Source: a virus
Lineage: Duplodnaviria > Caudoviricetes
DNA length: 41,370 nucleotides
Direction: 5' to 3' (one strand)
Virus record (IMG/VR): IMGVR_UViG_3300036856_000057
Span: 1 to 41,370 of that record
Shown here: positions 1,928 through 39,937 of the stretch, one piece after another
Numbering within the stretch: the stretch's first letter is position 1
Layout: the number at the start of each line of letters is the position of its first letter
Program-made: the position numbers and the translations under genes
Notes under the pieces: model-generated
Told to the model about the DNA's origin: nothing
Seen by the model: the letters and a program-made list of their open reading frames with translations, nothing else
Database searches by the model: none

Positions 1928-4552
1928 TCATTCGTTGGTCGCGCCGGGCGAGTCGGCGAGCCACGCGGTTTGCCCCACGGAATAGGTGAAGTGCTGCGCA
2001 TTGCACTTGCTGGCAGTCGCGCCGATGGTCATGAATCCATGCACATTCGACGGCGCGGCGACGGTGAAGCCGCCGGTGCCGTTCTGGCAAAAGGTGAGTG
2101 TCTTCTCCTGCCCGTCCATGCCTGCGGCCAGGGTGAAGCTGGTTATGTTCGCGGTCATGGTGATGATGCTGGCGCGCGTTTTTACGGAGAATGTGGGCGT
2201 CGCGGAAAATGTAACTGTCTCTGCACTCGCCACCACGGCCGTGTCCGGGCACACCTCGTAGGCACCCATGCCCAGCCCGGTAAAGATAGGGTTGACGTTG
2301 GTGCGGAAGTGCAGCCAGCCATGCACATTGCCCAGGTTTACATCTTGGCCGGAGCACATGGATAAGTTCGAGGGGTCGTTGTGCAAGGTGACGTTGGCAT
2401 TGCCGCCCAACACCCAAAAATCTTGATTCCAACTGCCAAAGAATGCGGTGATGGTGACGGGTGAACTGTCGTTTGGGTAAATCGCGTGCAGCCCGTAGAT
2501 GGTCGGCTGGGCTCCGGTGGTGGTGGTGACTTGATCGGTGGATGGCGAAAACAGCGTGCCCGACAGCACACCCAGGCCGTTCACAAACTGCGGCGTGCCG
2601 TCGCGCAGCTCGGAGGTCCCATTCGTCATGTAATCCGCCGTGCCATAGGTGGGACCGAATCCCCCATTCTGCAAAAACTGCACGCCGGAGAGAATGCCGC
2701 CCGGCGGCGTCGCTCCGTTGAAATCGTAAAGCTGCACGCAGTAGGGAATGCCGCCCACAGTGAGTGCGTTCGCTGCTCCGCAAGAGGCGTCGATGATGCC
2801 GCCGTTCACGCTCACCTCGATGTCATTGGTATAGAAGCCCTCTAGCCGCGCGAAATCGACGCGGATGTTCTCGTAACTGTCTCCCGGTCCGCTGCAACAG
2901 GGTTGCGCGATGCCCACCTGGCCTAACTGCGCCCAGATGTGGTCAAAGTGCGCGTCGCCGCCGCCGCCCAGGTAGTCCGTTAAGTGGTGATAGGTCGCCG
3001 CTGTCGGCGCATCAAAAAGCCCATACGTCTCCGTCCAGTCCGACATATTGTCGGCGCCCACTGTCTCGATGTTTCCATGCCAGCCGTCCGCGGTGCTCGA
3101 TGACACAACGTAGTAGTAAGTTCCCGCAGCCAAGGTGCCGCCGCTCGTCGATCCGGTGGGCGTGATGGTGCCTGGCGCCGCGGCCGCGGTCTGCGTGGGG
3201 AAGTTGAACGGACCGCCGGACGTGCCGGCCGCGCCGGTGTCGGTGAAGCTGTTCGTTGCGGTCAGGTAGTACGTGCCTTCGCCGCCGGCCGTGGTGCCGC
3301 GATAAACCACGTATCCCGTCGCGCCGGTCACCGCGCTCCAGCTCAGCGCAACGGAGCTGGTTGTTCCCGTGGTGGTTACATTTGTCTCGGGACTGGGAAG
3401 ACTTTCCCCTACGCCCTTATAGCCGCCGAAGTAATACCATTCGTTGTCGCTGTACAGCGTGTTGTGGAAGGATTTCGCGTCGGCGTTGTCGGTGCGGATG
3501 CCGTAGCCTCCGAAGTATTCCGCATACGTCCACTCCACCAGCCCGCCGGATGACGACATCTGAAGCCCCTGGTTGCCCGGTCCGCCGTCGCCATAGCTGG
3601 CGTTGTCGCCCGGCGCGTTGGAGCATCCGCCGGTGGCGCAGCCTTGTAGCAGAAAGTGCGACACGCGCGTCTGCCCGCCGCTCAGCGTCACCGCGTTGCC
3701 GGAGCAAGTCACCGTCATCGTCGGCGGCGCGTTCATGATTTGTTTGTTGTTGTAGCGCGAAACCAGGTGTGTGCCGCCCTGCGCATTGGCCACGCCCTCG
3801 GACCACGAGCCCGGCGGCAGGACCAATTGGTCAATCTGGAAGGTGCCTTGCGGCCATTGCGCCTTGGCCTGGGAGACGGTGCCGGCGTAGAGGTCGCAGG
3901 CCATCTGGTTGTACATCGCCTGCGCGGCCGCTTCCGGCGTCGCGCCATGGATGCCGCCCGCCCAGCGCACGTCTCGCGGGTCGTAGATGCCGGCGTTGAG
4001 GTCATCCTGCCAGGCCGCCGTGCCCGTGGCACCGTTCACCGTGATGCCCTTCTCCGGCATCCCCACAGCGCCGCCGGAGCCGTTGCCCGCGATCACCTGG
4101 GTTTGGCTGGGAAAGGTGCCGCCGCCGCCCGTGCCCGGCGGAACAGGCGCGGCCGCGAAAACCGATGTCAAATCGAGCGTAGATCCGCTGCAATTGCTGT
4201 TGTGTATGCAGGTCACCGGCATGGTCACCAGGTAACAGGTCGGCGCCACCAGATAGGTGCCTTGCGAACACATCCTGAGCTGCCACTGCGAGCCCGCCGG
4301 AAACAAGCTGCTGTTATCGGCGATCTGGAAATTCCACGCGCCGGAGGCGTTCAGGTTCGCGGCGAAGATGATAGGAAAGCGTTGCCCGCTGTAGCTGTTC
4401 GCCGAAGTGTTTGCCGGCGGCGCAAAGTTCGCCGTCATGGTGCCGTTGGGATAATTCGTATTCCCGCCGGTGACGGTCACGAATGAGGCCGTCTGCGCCA
4501 GCGCGAGCTGCGGCAGCAAGCAAAGCAACAGCACAAGAAAGCGCGTTCGCAT
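1928..4552 (-). CDS. Tailspike/fibre-like protein 1 with N-terminal signal peptide (874 aa)
   Basis: Starts MRTRFLVLLLCLLPQLALA/QTAS (TAATG overlap with upstream stop); shared 4-Cys domain; G/T/N-rich, beta-helix-like body; FN3-like insert. Confidence 0.7.
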   Translation of the reverse strand: MRTRFLVLLLCLLPQLALAQTASFVTVTGGNTNYPNGTMTANFAPPANTSANSYSGQRFPIIFAANLNASGAWNFQIADNSSLFPAGSQWQLRMCSQGTYLVAPTCYLVTMPVTCIHNSNCSGSTLDLTSVFAAAPVPPGTGGGGTFPSQTQVIAGNGSGGAVGMPEKGITVNGATGTAAWQDDLNAGIYDPRDVRWAGGIHGATPEAAAQAMYNQMACDLYAGTVSQAKAQWPQGTFQIDQLVLPPGSWSEGVANAQGGTHLVSRYNNKQIMNAPPTMTVTCSGNAVTLSGGQTRVSHFLLQGCATGGCSNAPGDNASYGDGGPGNQGLQMSSSGGLVEWTYAEYFGGYGIRTDNADAKSFHNTLYSDNEWYYFGGYKGVGESLPSPETNVTTTGTTSSVALSWSAVTGATGYVVYRGTTAGGEGTYYLTATNSFTDTGAAGTSGGPFNFPTQTAAAAPGTITPTGSTSGGTLAAGTYYYVVSSSTADGWHGNIETVGADNMSDWTETYGLFDAPTAATYHHLTDYLGGGGDAHFDHIWAQLGQVGIAQPCCSGPGDSYENIRVDFARLEGFYTNDIEVSVNGGIIDASCGAANALTVGGIPYCVQLYDFNGATPPGGILSGVQFLQNGGFGPTYGTADYMTNGTSELRDGTPQFVNGLGVLSGTLFSPSTDQVTTTTGAQPTIYGLHAIYPNDSSPVTITAFFGSWNQDFWVLGGNANVTLHNDPSNLSMCSGQDVNLGNVHGWLHFRTNVNPIFTGLGMGAYEVCPDTAVVASAETVTFSATPTFSVKTRASIITMTANITSFTLAAGMDGQEKTLTFCQNGTGGFTVAAPSNVHGFMTIGATASKCNAQHFTYSVGQTAWLADSPGATNE

Positions 4553-22024: not shown

Positions 22025-22145
22025 ATCCGCCTTTTTTAATCTGCAACTTCTGGAAGCGCCGGCCGCTCCGCACCCAGCCGTGGAGGTAGCCCAGCCAATA
22101 CATCGCCACTCCCGTGCAAATCGCTGTCAGAACCCATTTCGTCAT
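22011..22145 (-). CDS. Small single-TM protein
   Basis: MTKWVLTAICTGVAMYWLGYLHGW followed by a basic tail; AAGGG RBS. Confidence 0.5.
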   Translation of the reverse strand: MTKWVLTAICTGVAMYWLGYLHGWVRSGRRFQKLQIKKGGFADD

Positions 22146-22686
22146 AGCCCTTGTCCCTCTCTTCAAGCCGCATCCGCCAGCCCTTCGGTGGTGGCCACGG
22201 CACTCCCCATTCCGCGAGTTGCTTCTTTGTCCAGCCGCCGCGCGGTGTTTTTTTTGCCTCAACCTCTTCCCTCGATACGTGGGCGGTTATGGATTTCAGA
22301 CGTTGTTCGAAAGTCTTTGGCCGCGGCGGTGTCGGCGTCCCATGTGCCGGCTTCCCCATCACCACGACTCTTTTCCAGAGATTCACCGGATTGCCTGTAA
22401 CCTTCCCCCCACAGCGTAAACAGCGCAGCCCATACCGTTCCCTGTTCCATTCGTGATCGGCATCCGCCACTCCGCACGGCCGCTGGGTGGGATCGTCTAC
22501 CGCCACTGTCGGCTTGCTCGTCGGCGGCGGTTTCAGGCTTTTTTTCTTAGCCCTATACGCACGCCACATGTTCCGCAAGTGATCGTTCGCTGGTGGGGCC
22601 TTTCCCTCCTCTGCCCACTTCTTCAGTGCCCACTCGATGAACTGGCGCTGCGTTAGCTCGCGTTTTCGCTTTTTTTTTGCCCCCAC
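22036..22686 (-). CDS. Basic protein with possible Zn ribbon and GGWT...WGVPWPPPKGW motif
   Basis: AAGGTG RBS plus GTG; K/R-rich N-terminus; C...H...CLRC; Trp/Pro motif that I recall from small phage proteins. Confidence 0.6.
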   Translation of the reverse strand: MGAKKKRKRELTQRQFIEWALKKWAEEGKAPPANDHLRNMWRAYRAKKKSLKPPPTSKPTVAVDDPTQRPCGVADADHEWNRERYGLRCLRCGGKVTGNPVNLWKRVVVMGKPAHGTPTPPRPKTFEQRLKSITAHVSREEVEAKKTPRGGWTKKQLAEWGVPWPPPKGWRMRLEERDKGYDEMGSDSDLHGSGDVLAGLPPRLGAERPALPEVAD

Positions 22687-22699
22687 TTAAGTTTCACCT

Positions 22700-23560
22700 T
22701 TTCAATCGAGTAGACACACGAGGGGCATCCCTCCCCGGGGAGATAAGGTTCCCCGTGATGTAAGCTAGAGGCAATTGCGTCGCGTCCCCCTTGGTGTGTC
22801 GCGGGGTGAAGTGGAGCGGGCAAACTCTACTTCGGTACTTCAGCCTTGCTGCTTACATCACGGTGGAAACCTTGATCCTCTCCCTTTTTGGGTGGGTCTT
22901 GCACTACACGCTGTCAGCACCTCGCTTCGGGCTCTGAGACGCGGTGATTGGTAATAAAAAAACCAAAAAACCGCGTTTTCAGAGCCCAAGGCATTCAGAG
23001 CGGCCTTCGCTTATACGAGCTTTTTTTTCGCCCTTTCGGGCTACCCCACTGTTTTAGACCAGGACGCCTTGCCCCTCGTATGCGGATCAACTACCGCACT
23101 CGTCGGCCTGGAAAAACCTGCGCAGGTTTGTAGCGCAGGAAGCTCTTTCGCAAATCTCAGTAAAGGCACCAGGACCCTTGCGAGTCGTGGCGTTTTCTCT
23201 CCCCATACCTACTGGTGCCCGTTCCCCGGACGCTTTAGCTCCGATGACCGGATACCTGCCGGACCCATTCCCCCCTAGCCCCTAGCCACGAAACGCAACG
23301 GACTGCTTGCGGCCGTAAACCGAGGCATCGATTCAATGGGTGCTACTCTCACTCGCCGGTTCTTCTCTCCCGGGCGAGTTGCCTGTTTTTCACCGTTGTT
23401 TTCCGGTCCATGTTCGAGCTTGAACCTTGCGGGCCGGGCACTCGAAAAAAACTCGAGCTTTTTCCCGGTACGAACATGGGCAGAATGGAGGGTATCCACT
23501 CTGCAAGCTGGTGTCGATGCAACCGTGTCTTGCAGTCGGGAGCCATGATTTGCTAGGCTC
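22700..23560. ncRNA. Candidate large structured non-coding RNA (or structured ssDNA element)
   Basis: No convincing ORF; more than 12 stems, including 13-bp CCGTGATGTAAGC/GCTTACATCACGG and a 10-bp long-range pair 22718-22727/23070-23079; GNRA and UUCG tetraloops. Confidence 0.55.
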
Positions 23561-23801
23561 TACCGCAGACAGAGGATGCTGACTCACGCTCTAACCGTAG
23601 GCCTCCTTTCTTTCCTTGCCGGGGAATAGTCTCCGAATAGGCCGCTGTGGTGGTTCTCAACCACACGCGGCCTTTTCTAGTTCTATACACGGAAATGCCA
23701 ACCTCTTCCAGCAAACCATCGTGAATGAGTTGGTACACCCGCTGCGGAGACTTGCCCAGGAACACTGCAAACTCGCTAACGCTCATCAGGACGATAATCA
23801 T
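23553..23801 (-). CDS. Excisionase/MerR-like HTH protein
   Basis: LMSVSEFAVFLGKSPQRVYQLIHDGLL...GRVW is a typical HTH_17-like pattern; GGAGG RBS. Confidence 0.7.
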   Translation of the reverse strand: MIIVLMSVSEFAVFLGKSPQRVYQLIHDGLLEEVGISVYRTRKGRVWLRTTTAAYSETIPRQGKKGGLRLERESASSVCGRA

Positions 23802-24019
23802 GCCGCGAGGCCTCCTGAGAGCCAGAATCGTTCGACGCTGGACGATAAAAAAACCGCGTCAGATAAGGACGCGGCGCATGTTCGCGCATTCATCAGGTCC
23901 GCCGCCGGCACGTCGCCGGCGGGGAATGTTGCAAACACCTGATCGCGTGCGCTGACCACAAAATGTGTTCGGCCGGCGGCCGGCTGGCAATCCACAACCG
24001 CTGAGCCAAAGGGTGTCAT
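23798..24019 (-). CDS. Hypothetical protein
   Basis: ATGA-coupled to the portal stop and to the next gene. Confidence 0.5.
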   Translation of the reverse strand: MTPFGSAVVDCQPAAGRTHFVVSARDQVFATFPAGDVPAADLMNARTCAASLSDAVFLSSSVERFWLSGGLAA

Positions 24020-25680
24020 TTCTTCCCTTTCGGCTCGCTGACAGAAGCCACTGCTTTCAAGGCCAGCTCTTGCTGGATGCGCTCGCCGATCTCGGCCGCG
24101 TTGGGGTAGCCCAGCATGGCCAGGCCTTCGCCGATGGGCAGGGCGCCCTTGCCCATCAATCCCTCGGCGATCCGCGCCACAATAGCCTGCGATTTCACAT
24201 GAAAACTTCCGTCGTCGATGAACGTCAACAGTTCATCCACCGTCTCCTCCGGCCGCTTGTAGTCGACGATTTCAAATTTGCCTCTGCTGGTGCGCATCGG
24301 CATCTTCTGCGCCGGCATGTACTCGACCATCCCGTAGGTGATGCACTTGGACAATTCCAGAACACTCGCGCTGGCCAGGCGGCCGCGGAGTTGCGTCATG
24401 CCCTGGCCGCGGAGTACCGCGGCGTCGAATAGCTCCGGCGAGAGGTTGCCGTCGCCCGGGTTGCCCTGCCGCGCCTGGGTGAAGCCGTGGATGTCGCGCT
24501 GTTTCTGCAACAGCATCTCGGGGATCTTGGTGGCGCTGTCGGGGAACGATGGCGGCGTGATGCAGTTGGGCGGCTTCTCTCCCTTGTACGTCACTTTCTC
24601 GCCAGGCACGCCGCCAAACTGGTTTTGGTTGATCTCGGCGGTTTCGGGAATACACCACACACCGTTATTCAACCGCCAGAAATTCTCATAAGTTTGGGCG
24701 TAAAATTTTTCGGCCAAACCTTGCAGGTTTTGCGTGTAGCGCGTCGGCGGCACTGCCCATGGTCCAAACAGCGGCGGCGTACCCCACACCGGCACCAGGT
24801 TGAATCTGCCCTGCGGCCAGGGGATCTGGCCATCCGCGAGGATGACGTTTTCGCATTCCACCAGCATCCGGCCGTTGGGGTACTCCCACTTGTACTTTGC
24901 CGGCGATTTGGGATCGTTCGACGCGATGAGCGATCGAGTGTAGTCCTTGCATAAGCACCAGCGCACGCGCGTGGCGAATCCGCGCGGCGTCGATACCGCA
25001 TCCAGCGCCGGCATGGATTGAAACGGTCCCGGCGGCAATACAAAACCGTTGCCGCCCTCGGGTGCGCGGAGATCGCGCATTGCGGTTCCCGGATACTTCG
25101 GCAGCAAGTGCGCTTTCTCGGGGAAGCGGGATTTCACCTCGTCCAAGTGGATCCAGTCTTCCAGGATGATCCAGCTCCAGTTGAGGGTGTAGTCGGTGTT
25201 CGGGTCCATGTGGACGCTGCGCGGGTCGCGGCACTTCGTCCACATTTTGCCGAGTCCATTGTTGGCGCGCGGGTCGATGCCCACCTGGAGAAAAGCGGTT
25301 CCGGCGAACTGCGCGATAAGAAACGCATAGAGCAAGTGGTAAGGCACAAACATCTGCTCCCACTGCGAGCGGAAGCCGTTCTCTATGGTGTCCAGTCGTG
25401 CTGATTTTTTCTGACTGTAGATGTACGCCTGCGGCTGAAACTCGGAAAGGTCGTTCGCTTCCCGCATCATGAGCACTTGCAGCTCGGGGATGCTGATGCT
25501 CGGCCGGTAGCGCGGGGAAGGCGCGCTCTGGCTCATCTCAAAAAATGCTTTTACGTCGTCGAAGTAGTTGATGCCCAGCGCGTCCTGCTGCTTGGCTTTC
25601 GAGATCCGCTCCCACTCGTCCATGTGCCGGATGCGCGGGTCTATATCCGGCGCGCTGCGACGAGCGGTCATGACGATCAT
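24016..25680 (-). CDS. Portal protein
   Basis: 554 aa; downstream of TerL; GTAFLQV...DPRSVHMDP, DIHGFTQARQG patterns of podovirus-type portals. Confidence 0.85.
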   Translation of the reverse strand: MIVMTARRSAPDIDPRIRHMDEWERISKAKQQDALGINYFDDVKAFFEMSQSAPSPRYRPSISIPELQVLMMREANDLSEFQPQAYIYSQKKSARLDTIENGFRSQWEQMFVPYHLLYAFLIAQFAGTAFLQVGIDPRANNGLGKMWTKCRDPRSVHMDPNTDYTLNWSWIILEDWIHLDEVKSRFPEKAHLLPKYPGTAMRDLRAPEGGNGFVLPPGPFQSMPALDAVSTPRGFATRVRWCLCKDYTRSLIASNDPKSPAKYKWEYPNGRMLVECENVILADGQIPWPQGRFNLVPVWGTPPLFGPWAVPPTRYTQNLQGLAEKFYAQTYENFWRLNNGVWCIPETAEINQNQFGGVPGEKVTYKGEKPPNCITPPSFPDSATKIPEMLLQKQRDIHGFTQARQGNPGDGNLSPELFDAAVLRGQGMTQLRGRLASASVLELSKCITYGMVEYMPAQKMPMRTSRGKFEIVDYKRPEETVDELLTFIDDGSFHVKSQAIVARIAEGLMGKGALPIGEGLAMLGYPNAAEIGERIQQELALKAVASVSEPKGKK

Positions 25681-35904: not shown

Positions 35905-35928
35905 GGATATGCGCGCCTCGTTTTCAGT

Positions 35929-35969
35929 TTGATATCACACTATAACTCTGATATCAGAATTATGTCACT
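35929..35969. promoter_or_regulatory. NTGATATC array A5 upstream of the ATPase operon
   Basis: TTGATATC-ACA-CTATAACT-CTGATATC-AGA-ATTATGTC. Confidence 0.65.
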
Positions 35970-36271: not shown

Positions 36272-37069
36272 GTGCCTGATCGTACACAAAATGTGCTCAT
36301 TCCGTTGCCGTGCCCGTTCTGTGGCGCGGAGCCCCGCATCTTCTCGCGTTCCGGCATCTCAACCCACTTCATCGAATGCAATGAGGCAGGACACCTGGCC
36401 AGCGCCGCCGCGGAAAGCCCAGACGTTGCGCTCGCGATCTGGAACACGCGCGCGACGCCGGCGCCGCAGGCCTCGACCGACTATGACGCATGGAAACAGG
36501 CCTGGAATGACAACCGCGGTCCGCTGCCGCAGGCCACCAAGCTGACAGGGGAGCGGCTCGATAAGCTGCGCCGGCGCATCAAGGAAGGCCTCACACTCGA
36601 AGAGTTCACGCGCGCAGCGTGGGCTTGCTCGCACACGGAGTTTCTCCTGCGCGGCACACCGAAGCAGGAGTTTCATGCAACGTTCGATTGGCTCGTGAGT
36701 AACAGCGGCGTGGTCGCAAAGGTGCTCGATGGTACTTACGGGCCAACCGGAAAGAGTGAAACGGAGTTGAAGGCGGAGCAAGAGGAGAAGAAGCAGCTCG
36801 CCGCTCAGGCGACGGAGGATCTCTTGCGCCATCTGTCCAAAAAAATGCAGCAAGGTGGCGAGGTAGGGCCGGACCTGCAAACCTCGGTGTTTCTCTGGGA
36901 ATTAGAGCAGGCGCGAGCGACGGGGGAAGGGGATAAGGTCTATGCGGTCTGGGTGGATCGCATGGCCCATGGGGTGAAGCTCTCCGGTCCGGTCACCTTC
37001 CGGCTGAAGGAATGGGTTGCCTCTCGCGTGACGGAGGTAACTACAGACACAACAGCGACATCCACATAA
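36272..37069 (+). CDS. Lar-like Zn domain fused to a phage replication-initiator-like domain
   Basis: LPCPFCG...AIWNTRA (Lar-like) followed by KLTGER...FHATFDWLVSN...KVLDGTY (replisome organiser C-terminal-like). Confidence 0.6.
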   Translation: MPDRTQNVLIPLPCPFCGAEPRIFSRSGISTHFIECNEAGHLASAAAESPDVALAIWNTRATPAPQASTDYDAWKQAWNDNRGPLPQATKLTGERLDKLRRRIKEGLTLEEFTRAAWACSHTEFLLRGTPKQEFHATFDWLVSNSGVVAKVLDGTYGPTGKSETELKAEQEEKKQLAAQATEDLLRHLSKKMQQGGEVGPDLQTSVFLWELEQARATGEGDKVYAVWVDRMAHGVKLSGPVTFRLKEWVASRVTEVTTDTTATST

Positions 37070-37073
37070 TCAG

Positions 37074-37103
37074 GTGATATCGTTTTACTATCAGAGTGAT
37101 ATA
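37074..37103. promoter_or_regulatory. NTGATATC array A6
   Basis: GTGATATC-GTT-TTACTATC-AGA-GTGATATA, intergenic. Confidence 0.65.
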
Positions 37104-38063: not shown

Positions 38064-38720
38064 ATGATCGTTTTGGTGGGAGGCGTAAAAGGCGGCGCCG
38101 GCAAGTCTACCGTCGCGACGAATCTAGCGATAATGCGTAGTAAAGCGGGTTTCGATGTGTTGCTAGTGGATGCAGATGAGCAAGAAACTTCAAAAGACTT
38201 TACCAATCTGCGGACGGAAGAACTAAAAAGCAATGGCGGTGCGGGGTATACCTGCGTAGCTCTCTCCGGCCAGCTTGTCAGAACGCAAGTCCTGCGCCTC
38301 GCCAACAAGTATGACGACATCATCATCGACGTGGGCGGCCGCGACACCACCAGCCAGCGCGCGGCTCTGGTGATCGCGGATATGGTCCTGGTGCCGTTCG
38401 TGCCGCGGTCGTTCGATGTCTGGACTCTTGAAGTGGTGGCGGGCATCATAGCCGAAGTGCGGACGGTCAATTCCAAACTCAAGGCGGTGTGCTTTCTCAA
38501 CCGCGCCGATCCGCGCGGCCAGGACAATGCCGAGACGGCGGAGTTGCTCAGCGAAAACAAAGGGCTGGAGTTCATTCAGGTGGCGCTGGGATCACGCAAG
38601 GCTTTCGCCAATGCGTCCGCGCGCGGCCTGGCCGTGGTGGAGCTGAAGCCGGGCGACCCCAAGGCCATCGAAGAGATTGAGGCCTTGTATAACTACGTAT
38701 TTCGTCCAGCAAAGCGCTGA
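38064..38720 (+). CDS. parA: ParA/ParF partition ATPase (short, type Ib-like)
   Basis: KGGAGKST deviant Walker A, VDADEQ, IIIDVGG; no N-terminal HTH. Confidence 0.92.
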   Translation: MIVLVGGVKGGAGKSTVATNLAIMRSKAGFDVLLVDADEQETSKDFTNLRTEELKSNGGAGYTCVALSGQLVRTQVLRLANKYDDIIIDVGGRDTTSQRAALVIADMVLVPFVPRSFDVWTLEVVAGIIAEVRTVNSKLKAVCFLNRADPRGQDNAETAELLSENKGLEFIQVALGSRKAFANASARGLAVVELKPGDPKAIEEIEALYNYVFRPAKR

Positions 38721-38785: not shown

Positions 38786-39937
38786 GTGGGGGTGCTGCGG
38801 ACGTACACGATGAGGCTAAAGACGACCAGCAAGCAGCGCCAGCGGCTAGAATCGTTGATGGTAGAACTGTGCGACCTCTACAACGCGGCATTACAGGAAA
38901 GACGCGACGCATGGAAGGTCCAGCGCAAGAAGATCAGCCTCTTTGACCAGCAGCGGGAGTTGACACAGTTAAGGGCATCATGTCCTGTTTCAGTCTCGTT
39001 TCCTGCGGTCATCCAGCGCGACCCGCTCCGCCGCGTAGATCGAGCGTTCAAAGCGTTCTTTCGCAGAGTGAAGGCGGGTGAGCATCCGGGCTATCCGCGA
39101 TTCAAGTCCGTTCACAGGTACGACTCGTTCTCGGTCGAGGGTGGCCGATTCAAGATTTCAGATGGCAGCCTGAGTATCGTGCGGATAGGCAGCTTTCGGA
39201 CGAAGACGCGCTGCAAGTTGCGGGGCGAGCCCAGAGAACTACGCATCAAGCGGTGTGGTCAGAAATGGCGAGCGCAGGTAGTTTGCGAGATCGGCCCAGC
39301 TCCGGAAAAGGTGCCTGTAGCTAGCGCAGTCGGCATAGATGTAGGTCTTTCGTCACTCGCAACTCTCAGCGATGGTACGGAGATCCGAAATCCTAGATGG
39401 GGTCGCGCCGCAGGGGATGAGTTGGCCAAAGCCAACCAATCCTTGGCTCGCAAGATGCGGGGCAGCAGGAACCGCTCTAAGGCCCGCGAGCGCCTGCGCA
39501 GGACGTATCAGCGTATCGTCGGCAGGCGGTCTACGTATCTCACTGCGGTGGCAAAATCGCTTGTCCGCGATTACGACCTCATCGCATATGAGGATTTAAA
39601 GATTCGTCAGATGGTCAGGTCGAATCTGGCAAAGAGCATTCTCGACGCCGCATGGAAGCAGTTGATCGGAAGACTTCATTGTGAAGCAGAATATGCTGGC
39701 AAATGGATGATCCCGGTCGATCCTCGCGGCACCACTCAGCAGTGCTATGGATGTAAAAGGCGCGTCCCGAAGACCATCGCGCACCGCATCCACGAGTGCC
39801 CACACTGCGGCTTATGTATAGGCCGAGACCATAACGCAGCACTGAACGTTTTAGAGCGCGGTGTGCGCTCTGTCGCGCTTGCGGCAAGAGGATGTGACTC
39901 GTCCGGCACCTATAACTTCGATATTAGAGTGATATAA
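38786..39937 (+). CDS. tnpB: TnpB RNA-guided endonuclease (IS200/IS605 family); no TnpA
   Basis: LYNAALQERR, GYPRFK, RuvC-I GIDVG, RuvC-II YEDL, Zn finger CYGC/CPHC, RuvC-III RDHNAALN. Confidence 0.93.
   Translation: MGVLRTYTMRLKTTSKQRQRLESLMVELCDLYNAALQERRDAWKVQRKKISLFDQQRELTQLRASCPVSVSFPAVIQRDPLRRVDRAFKAFFRRVKAGEHPGYPRFKSVHRYDSFSVEGGRFKISDGSLSIVRIGSFRTKTRCKLRGEPRELRIKRCGQKWRAQVVCEIGPAPEKVPVASAVGIDVGLSSLATLSDGTEIRNPRWGRAAGDELAKANQSLARKMRGSRNRSKARERLRRTYQRIVGRRSTYLTAVAKSLVRDYDLIAYEDLKIRQMVRSNLAKSILDAAWKQLIGRLHCEAEYAGKWMIPVDPRGTTQQCYGCKRRVPKTIAHRIHECPHCGLCIGRDHNAALNVLERGVRSVALAARGCDSSGTYNFDIRVI
39853..39930 (+). ncRNA. Possible 3' part of the TnpB omega-RNA scaffold and guide
   Basis: Three consecutive hairpins with G-U pairs on the sense strand at the tnpB 3' end, where omega-RNAs normally lie; boundaries not determined. 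Confidence 0.35.
39910..39937. promoter_or_regulatory. NTGATATC-like array A8 overlapping the last tnpB codons
   Basis: CTATAACT-TCGATATT-AGA-GTGATATA. Confidence 0.55.

Follow-up and report, generated by a model that had tools for sequence, protein, structure and literature searches.

In a soil phage, represented by a linear IMG/VR virus record of 41,370 bases (analysed over its whole length and referred to here as ‘the window’), we find a large, structured and uncatalogued element—‘the island’—that is real, and for which the case as a replication origin is good but unproven. It is probably an origin of some kind; by analogy with known plasmids, we would give an even chance to the more specific reading, that it is an origin primed by RNA, in the manner of ColE1 though without kinship to it, and serves a plasmid-like prophage from the replication slot of its clade (Table 1).

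Table 1. Positions of the island, its component parts and the surrounding genes in the window.
Feature	Position	Strand	Remarks
Island (whole conserved structured non-coding element)	about 22718..23583		~870 bases; homologues in L001, L010 and contigs of sequencing run X4
Downstream ORF, 216 aa, basic N-terminal part	22036..22686	-	
Conserved G-run and A9 tract just beyond the structure	22663..22684	-	Candidate RNA-to-DNA switch zone (putative function)
Rod-like arm, then U5 (22885-22889)	22736..22889	+	Candidate antisense RNA or single-stranded-DNA signal
Long hairpin, A/T-rich loop and flanks	22927..22989	+	Folds better on plus in 3/3 copies
Core multi-junction RNA, candidate pre-primer	22989..23583	- (gene-sense)	Covariation, GNRA loops, minus more stable
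LR2 long-range arm	23070..23079	-	Complementary to 22718-22727; 8 inner pairs invariant in 3/3 copies
Optional domain	23150..23250	-	Rearranged in L001; deleted (101 nt) in L010
Invariant G6 tract in internal loop	23270..23275	-	Role suggested by analogy only
5' bulged hairpin	23526..23571	-	Also upstream of L004 initiator genes; 59/60 cells paired
LR1 long-range arm	23572..23583	-	Complementary to 22913-22923; 11/11 modelled pairs kept in 3/3 copies
HTH_17-like gene, 82 aa	23553..23801	-	Head of replication slot; Pfam E 1e-5, just under cut-off
Strong Shine-Dalgarno-like 10-mer without conserved start codon	23602..23611	-	Window, L001, L010, L004 and X4 loose end
Terminator-like hairpin, portal/HTH gene interval	23853..23875	-	Matches the consensus only; 2.3 such sites expected in the region from shuffles
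Portal gene	24016..25680	-	Synteny anchor
‘Headless’ initiator: Lar-type zinc ribbon and O-like/DnaD-like C-terminal domain, without winged-helix head	36272..37069	+	
ParA partition ATPase	38064..38720	+	

The genes at 22036–22686 and 23553–23801 are separated by a gap of 866 nt. A preliminary description had pictured this stretch as a gene-free island of ~860 nt dense with stems, a picture that is borne out by the 25 motifs we looked up, every one of which is present at or near its reported position (22718/23070, 22753/22851, 22929/22970, 23408/23471); the UUCG loop at 22828 is present in the window and kept in the L001 copy of the island, but lost in the L010 copy. Open reading frames in the gap span just 35–74 amino acids, none of which retains both its start and its frame in every one of the three copies, and most indels have lengths not divisible by three (13 of 16 between window and L001; 20 of 22 between window and L010), indicating that there is no conserved protein frame. 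A protein-coding origin for the conservation, looked for across all three copies, is ruled out on these grounds.

Comparison with shuffled sequences, as had been proposed, shows that 22700–23560 (861 nt) folds better than each of 20 shuffles on either strand, with z-scores of −3.35 for plus and −4.87 for minus. By way of control, 86 windows of 240 nt taken across the genome give a median z of −0.07 and a minimum of −3.99, against which the island reaches −7.04 at 23441–23680 (minus) and −4.56 at 22841–23080 (plus). The three windows spanning 22961–23440 are unremarkable (z −0.06 to −1.29); both ends of the island thus stand out and its middle does not, such that the case for the middle rests on covariation rather than stability.

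That covariation is found in the core. Our model of 22989–23407 contains 71 pairs, with 95.7% of cells paired over the three copies and 18 pairs changed on both sides, as compared to 7.8 in shuffles (none of 500 reaching the observed value) and at most three when the pairing partners are slid; since the model was set by hand from the same three sequences, the test leans toward it. The contigs of sequencing run X4 provide a more independent test of the helices, which in our model cover 308 of the 679 positions in 22905–23583. Among the 35 differences listed for this interval (the main contig has 50), 14 fall within modelled helices: eight form four compensatory pairs—two matching changes seen in L001 (23341:23263 and 23477:23410) and two that are new (23335:23269 and 23307:23298)—five are single changes that keep pairing, four of them as G-U on the minus strand, and one breaks a terminal pair. 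The loop at 23034–23037 reads GAAA, GCAA or GAGA, thus varying within the GNRA consensus; together with the four G-U changes in X4, this argues for RNA rather than DNA. Of the earlier proposal of a novel large non-coding RNA, the structure and the novelty therefore stand, through core covariation and the lack of any Rfam match, with its status as RNA that of a candidate; the covariation called for is present in the core but weak in the left arm, where 4 of 87 pairs changed on both sides.

Per-domain energies confirm, in all three copies, the division of strands suggested previously (left part plus, right part minus). The minus strand is favoured across the core (about 23410–22990; domains H4–H13, with 23407–23017 favouring minus in every copy), and the plus strand across 22736–22989 in every copy, although in L010 the margin for the long arm is very slim; an element lying wholly on the minus strand is excluded by this preference of the left arm. 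Further 5' (23571–23408) the preference is mixed, being sense in the window and antisense in both L001 and L010. For H6 the difference between strands amounts to 5–11 kcal/mol with RNA energies and 1–2.5 kcal/mol with DNA energies; an automatic tally of G-U against A-C pairs (58 vs 48) does not separate the strands. The 5' hairpin at 23526–23571 has a single two-sided change, not above shuffles, and a model built on it recovered only its four training sequences from 533 kb. Of the two long-range pairings, LR1 is nearly invariant (one U-G in the window) and shows no covariation, as is also the case for LR2 among the three copies. The two cross each other, and could represent a pseudoknot, a switch or sites in DNA.

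On the left-hand side, the rod-like arm has predicted energies of −76.7, −68.3 and −65.4 kcal/mol on the plus strand vs −63.7, −63.6 and −65.3 kcal/mol on the minus strand in the three copies; its pairing is kept with shifts of register. With the arm folding better on plus in all three copies of the island and then running into a stretch of U, a sense/antisense pair of RNAs is possible. We found no promoter consensus on either strand of the island region. Beyond the structure, the A-tract is kept in all three copies, including L001 despite the loss there of most of the downstream ORF.

The clade to which the window belongs comprises 13 phages, collected through portal and capsid searches and all placed in our tree. 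Three of them—the window, L001 (81% identity; 675 of 832 positions identical) and L010 (73%; 538 of 737, with a 101-nt deletion)—carry full copies of the island and form a supported clade (97/100); contigs of run X4 hold a partial fourth. Three motif scans of IMG/VR (21, 3 and 100 loci) returned only the L001, L010 and L004 contigs as true, the remainder being chance or coding matches. Among 401 genomes of the class Terriglobia there was no further island (53 had short matches at E<=0.1, the eight best of which were chance, mostly in coding DNA), and the portal had no match in these or in PLSDB. The island is absent from 80 loci of a more distant portal group, and a GTDB scan with the capsid alignment gave no match; blastn searches with the island, covering 50,697 phage records and 72,556 plasmid records (PLSDB), gave nothing real, just one chance 37-mer. 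Rfam, the other search proposed at the outset, yields no family for the island, at either gathering or E-value thresholds, beyond chance hairpin matches. ‘Uncatalogued’ is used here in the sense of having no Rfam match, since the 224 motifs listed by PMC5737381 could include one that Rfam lacks. The clade as a whole consists of widespread uncultured phages, its portal and capsid being without match among 50,697 GenBank phages or 72,556 plasmids; the portal and capsid genes are separated by a long variable slot only in the nearer subclade, more distant relatives having no long slot.

Seven of the 13 clade phages hold an initiator gene in that same slot: RepA_C in L006/L018, L015, L023 and L026, HTH_36/O-like initiators in L004 and L025, and an O-like initiator with an IstB-type loader in L005. 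In all six cases checked, the initiator gene contains iteron-like repeats or is immediately followed by them (L026 ends inside its gene), from which we take the slot to contain a whole replicon. As the portals of L006, L015 and L023 are nearly the same, these amount to some four independent cases of an initiator in the slot. The long RNA is absent from all seven, and in no sequenced genome do we see a full initiator together with the island. Saying this, the slot is not the sole place for an initiator: one relative (G408; slot L017, with DnaB in it) has an iteron-containing initiator-like gene elsewhere. The G408 gene (L295:795–2000; 401 aa, unannotated, probably an initiator) contains three internal iteron-like repeats and lies beside a GroEL-like chaperonin at 2013–3851. 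Small unrelated ORFs stand at the head of the slot in L016 and L017, the L016 record being truncated, and at L004:5150–5300 the 5' hairpin and the Shine-Dalgarno-like 10-mer are found upstream of two tandem HTH_36 initiator-like genes.

Outside the island clade, the slot of L007 (genome G003) contains a folded gene-free stretch of 640 nt (L007:4190–4830; z −2.65). Like the island, it has a T-rich hairpin (similar to that at 22927–22989), a 3' A-tract and, identically ordered, two short motifs; the alignments score just above shuffles, lending the kinship weak support. This stretch is possibly a distant relative of the island or a second type of RNA replicon.

What, then, do the genomes with a non-coding slot have by way of replication proteins? 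Searches with Pfam and PHROGs of the non-structural ORFs called in the window, G001 and G003 revealed no full initiator, helicase, primase or polymerase; HTH_36 was found in none of the three, and the replication proteins of six relatives had no match in the island genomes. The island itself has no iteron-type repeats. A genome-wide scan, not fully sensitive in that it also missed the repeats of L005, gave no match in the window and, in G001 and G003, no more than one two-copy match apiece; no array of at least three copies was seen. The window, G001 and G003 are incomplete (41, 50.5 and 40 kb; 74, 61 and 71% by CheckV), and their unsequenced parts could include a full initiator.

We do see a ‘headless’ initiator: a domain in the middle of the protein matches phrog_10469 (positions 183–288, E 4e-11) and, weakly, genes for a ‘replisome organizer’. 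The domain typically occupies the C-terminal half of the protein among 634 database relatives, with HTH_36 or DUF1376 preceding it in 15 of the 32 relatives scanned. It is present in all three non-coding-slot genomes that cover its place (the window, G001 and G003; the L010 contig is too short), and was found neither in the protein-replicon relatives G407, G408 and G410 nor in G409, of which G407 covers the syntenic place of the gene, G410 spans ParA to portal and G409 stops short. The headless gene has no iterons within it. Its structure model is mediocre (pLDDT 69.8, pTM 0.38), with no PDB match, and the protein might itself be the initiator, with the zinc ribbon as DNA-binding head. Island, headless initiator and ParA gene occur together; as the three full island copies form one small clade, with L007 the sole case outside it, shared ancestry may account for the pairing of island and headless protein. 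Flanking the headless gene (35926–35968 and 37074–37101) are repeats of the TGATATCA type and an inverted pair of 28 nt, kept in G001 and resembling a par-site or operator.

The window also encodes a portal, large terminase, capsid, tail-related proteins, endolysin, RusA, a HerA-like ATPase and ParA, a set that looks podovirus-like. We found no family match for an integrase among the ORFs scanned. The (incomplete) window has portal, TerL, capsid and ParA genes and its relatives have RepA_C with iterons, as a phage-plasmid might. The HTH gene is the next after the portal across the clade. On the far side of the island, the ORF at 22036–22686 has no family match, and the segment encoding its basic N-terminal part (22158–22660) is absent in L001; L010 has a look-alike basic ORF behind the island. 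The basic part in the window is a candidate RNA-binding accessory. Two other ORFs had no match in the ESM Atlas. An IS605-type TnpB gene lies beside parA at 38786–39937 and was not seen there in G001, which for its part encodes an Acb2/Tad1-family anti-defence protein (L053:5240–5449). DnaB of clade member L017 has its best match in Terriglobia, at about 60% identity, by which indirect route a host among the Acidobacteriota is probable; both of the Terriglobia genomes tested have RNase H family genes.

In the ColE1 origin, a G-run and an A-tract each have roles, and both the G6 tract of the island and its terminal G-run/A-tract resemble these features. PMC5043065 describes a ColE1 transcript that persists as a hybrid, is cut by RNase H and is extended by Pol I; the RNA II/RNA I arrangement given there is further matched by ~600 nt of folded RNA ahead of the G-run and A-tract, by a possible counter-transcript and by there being no full initiator in the sequenced parts. 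The island differs in its phage context, in its ParA and headless initiator, and in its probable acidobacterial host. Homology to ColE1 can be rejected: there is no RNAI match in Rfam, a short patch shared with NC_001371 scores 28–30 vs shuffle maxima of 29 and is deleted in L010, and no plasmid matches. The marine RNA-based (MRB) replicons of Vibrionaceae (PMC3035462) likewise have an origin region, several hundred bases long, with neither genes nor iterons; they use two opposite RNAs (core ~500 bp; RNA I of 68 nt), reside on small plasmids and arose independently of ColE1. Their 110-bp RNA I core shows no homology to the island (blastn, PLSDB). In PMC5737381, the ARRPOF motif of Fusobacterium plasmid pKH9 is a structured motif inside 1 kb of gene-free sequence capable of replication without rep; in difference to the island, which has no Rfam match and belongs to another host and type of element, that paper's three plasmid motifs average 223–349 nt. 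Gene-free origins of 500–1000 bp are thus on record for ColE1, MRB and ARRPOF in the same three papers. If our reading holds, the island would work like ColE1 and MRB, with membership of either failing by sequence.

Large phage RNAs are the other obvious point of comparison. ROOL and GOLLD, according to PMC5737381, are similarly large, multi-junction, pseudoknotted and phage-borne; the island differs in having no covariance-model match, no neighbouring tRNAs and a place in a replicon slot. No covariance model for GOLLD, ROOL, OLE, HEARO or other large RNAs in Rfam matched it, and ARAGORN found no tRNA genes in the window, GOLLD and ROOL being frequently near such genes. The preliminary description had likewise been unable to match the island to GOLLD, ROOL or an intron, and nothing in our data points to any of them: a group I/II intron is rejected given the lack of an Rfam core match and a location between genes, with no joined gene there in relatives. 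The C-terminal domain of the 36272–37069 protein resembles lambda-O-like/DnaD-like replisome organisers (PHROGs 10469, 19658 and 345), from which the protein differs in lacking a winged-helix or DUF1376 head and in having no iterons in its gene; the features of a lambda-O-like iteron replicon are present in L004, L005 and L025 and not in the headless protein. The replicon of PMC12753305 is protein-based and was set aside as not relevant.

Among the functions suggested at the outset, an RNA-primed or single-stranded-DNA origin gains most, as relatives hold a complete Rep-plus-iteron replicon in the same slot; the sense/antisense pair is possible, as discussed. For an RNA-primed origin, we infer the following sequence of events. 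Transcription of the minus strand by the RNA polymerase of the host would begin in the region of the HTH gene; the folded core would stay hybridised to its template near the G-run/A-tract (22663–22727), and the transcript would be made into a primer by the host's RNase H and DNA polymerase I. The headless initiator may then load helicase onto the displaced strand, the RNA replacing the origin-binding and opening half of a conventional initiator. The plus-strand arm would serve as antisense regulator or single-strand signal, and the crossing LR1/LR2 arms as a putative switch. Against the primer reading, the putative primer would carry the plus-favoured arm at its 3' end, unlike ColE1, where RNA I lies at the 5' end.

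The same exchange with protein replicons would be expected were the island an origin in the form of folded single-stranded DNA or a cruciform, read by the headless initiator or a host primosome, with RNA serving only to activate or regulate. Signals read as single strands are long rods, as are both the left arm and the A/T-rich hairpin, and PMC5737381 cautions that motifs detected in plasmids through covariation may represent single-stranded DNA. In the core, in contrast, the helices are short and multi-branched, G-U pairs are conserved and GNRA loops occur, and the preference of the core for one strand is smaller with DNA energies; we consider a DNA origin of this type improbable.

An ornate trans-acting phage RNA, akin in kind to GOLLD or ROOL and occupying a variable slot whilst the zinc-ribbon protein or an unsequenced gene replicates the genome, is in our view unlikely, if somewhat harder to dismiss. 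Its size and pseudoknotted, multi-junction layout are like those that PMC5737381 gives for ROOL, the genomes are incomplete, and the replication gene elsewhere in G408 and the small ORFs at the slot head of L016/L017 could be accommodated; the missing Rfam match and tRNAs, the lack of a clear iteron array in island genomes and the finding that seven of seven relatives with Rep in the slot have no long RNA, with no sequenced genome combining island and full initiator, speak against it. Very unlikely, we believe, is a cis-acting leader—an antiterminator or attenuator with an antisense RNA—for transcription into the capsid genes, even though the island is co-oriented with and lies between the portal and capsid genes, has crossing long-range arms suggestive of two states, has its 5' hairpin preceding genes in L004 and is followed by a basic protein in the window and L010. 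A Rep gene occupies this position in relatives that express the same genes, more distant relatives have no long slot, and L001 keeps the RNA though its downstream ORF is mostly lost; cis-acting leaders need far less than 870 nt.

Returning to the RNA-primed origin, PMC3035462 (2010) lists ColE1 and MRB as the only plasmid replicons initiated by RNA, and our partial coverage of the literature found no phage-plasmid with one. We would advance only tentatively, and with rather more doubt than conviction, the idea of a third independently evolved RNA replicon, here in a tailed phage, wherein RNA would carry out origin recognition and opening, the C-terminal domain of an initiator would be retained as a helicase-loading adaptor, and the whole module would swap freely with RepA_C and lambda-O-type replicons at a single genomic site. 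A clade whose protein and RNA replicons alternated in this way would lend itself to a direct swap experiment. If true, our reading would suggest what one class of large orphan RNAs of phages does and account for some of the phage-plasmids that have no Rep gene; and, should the host assignment hold, the island would be a possible source of replicons for the Acidobacteriota.
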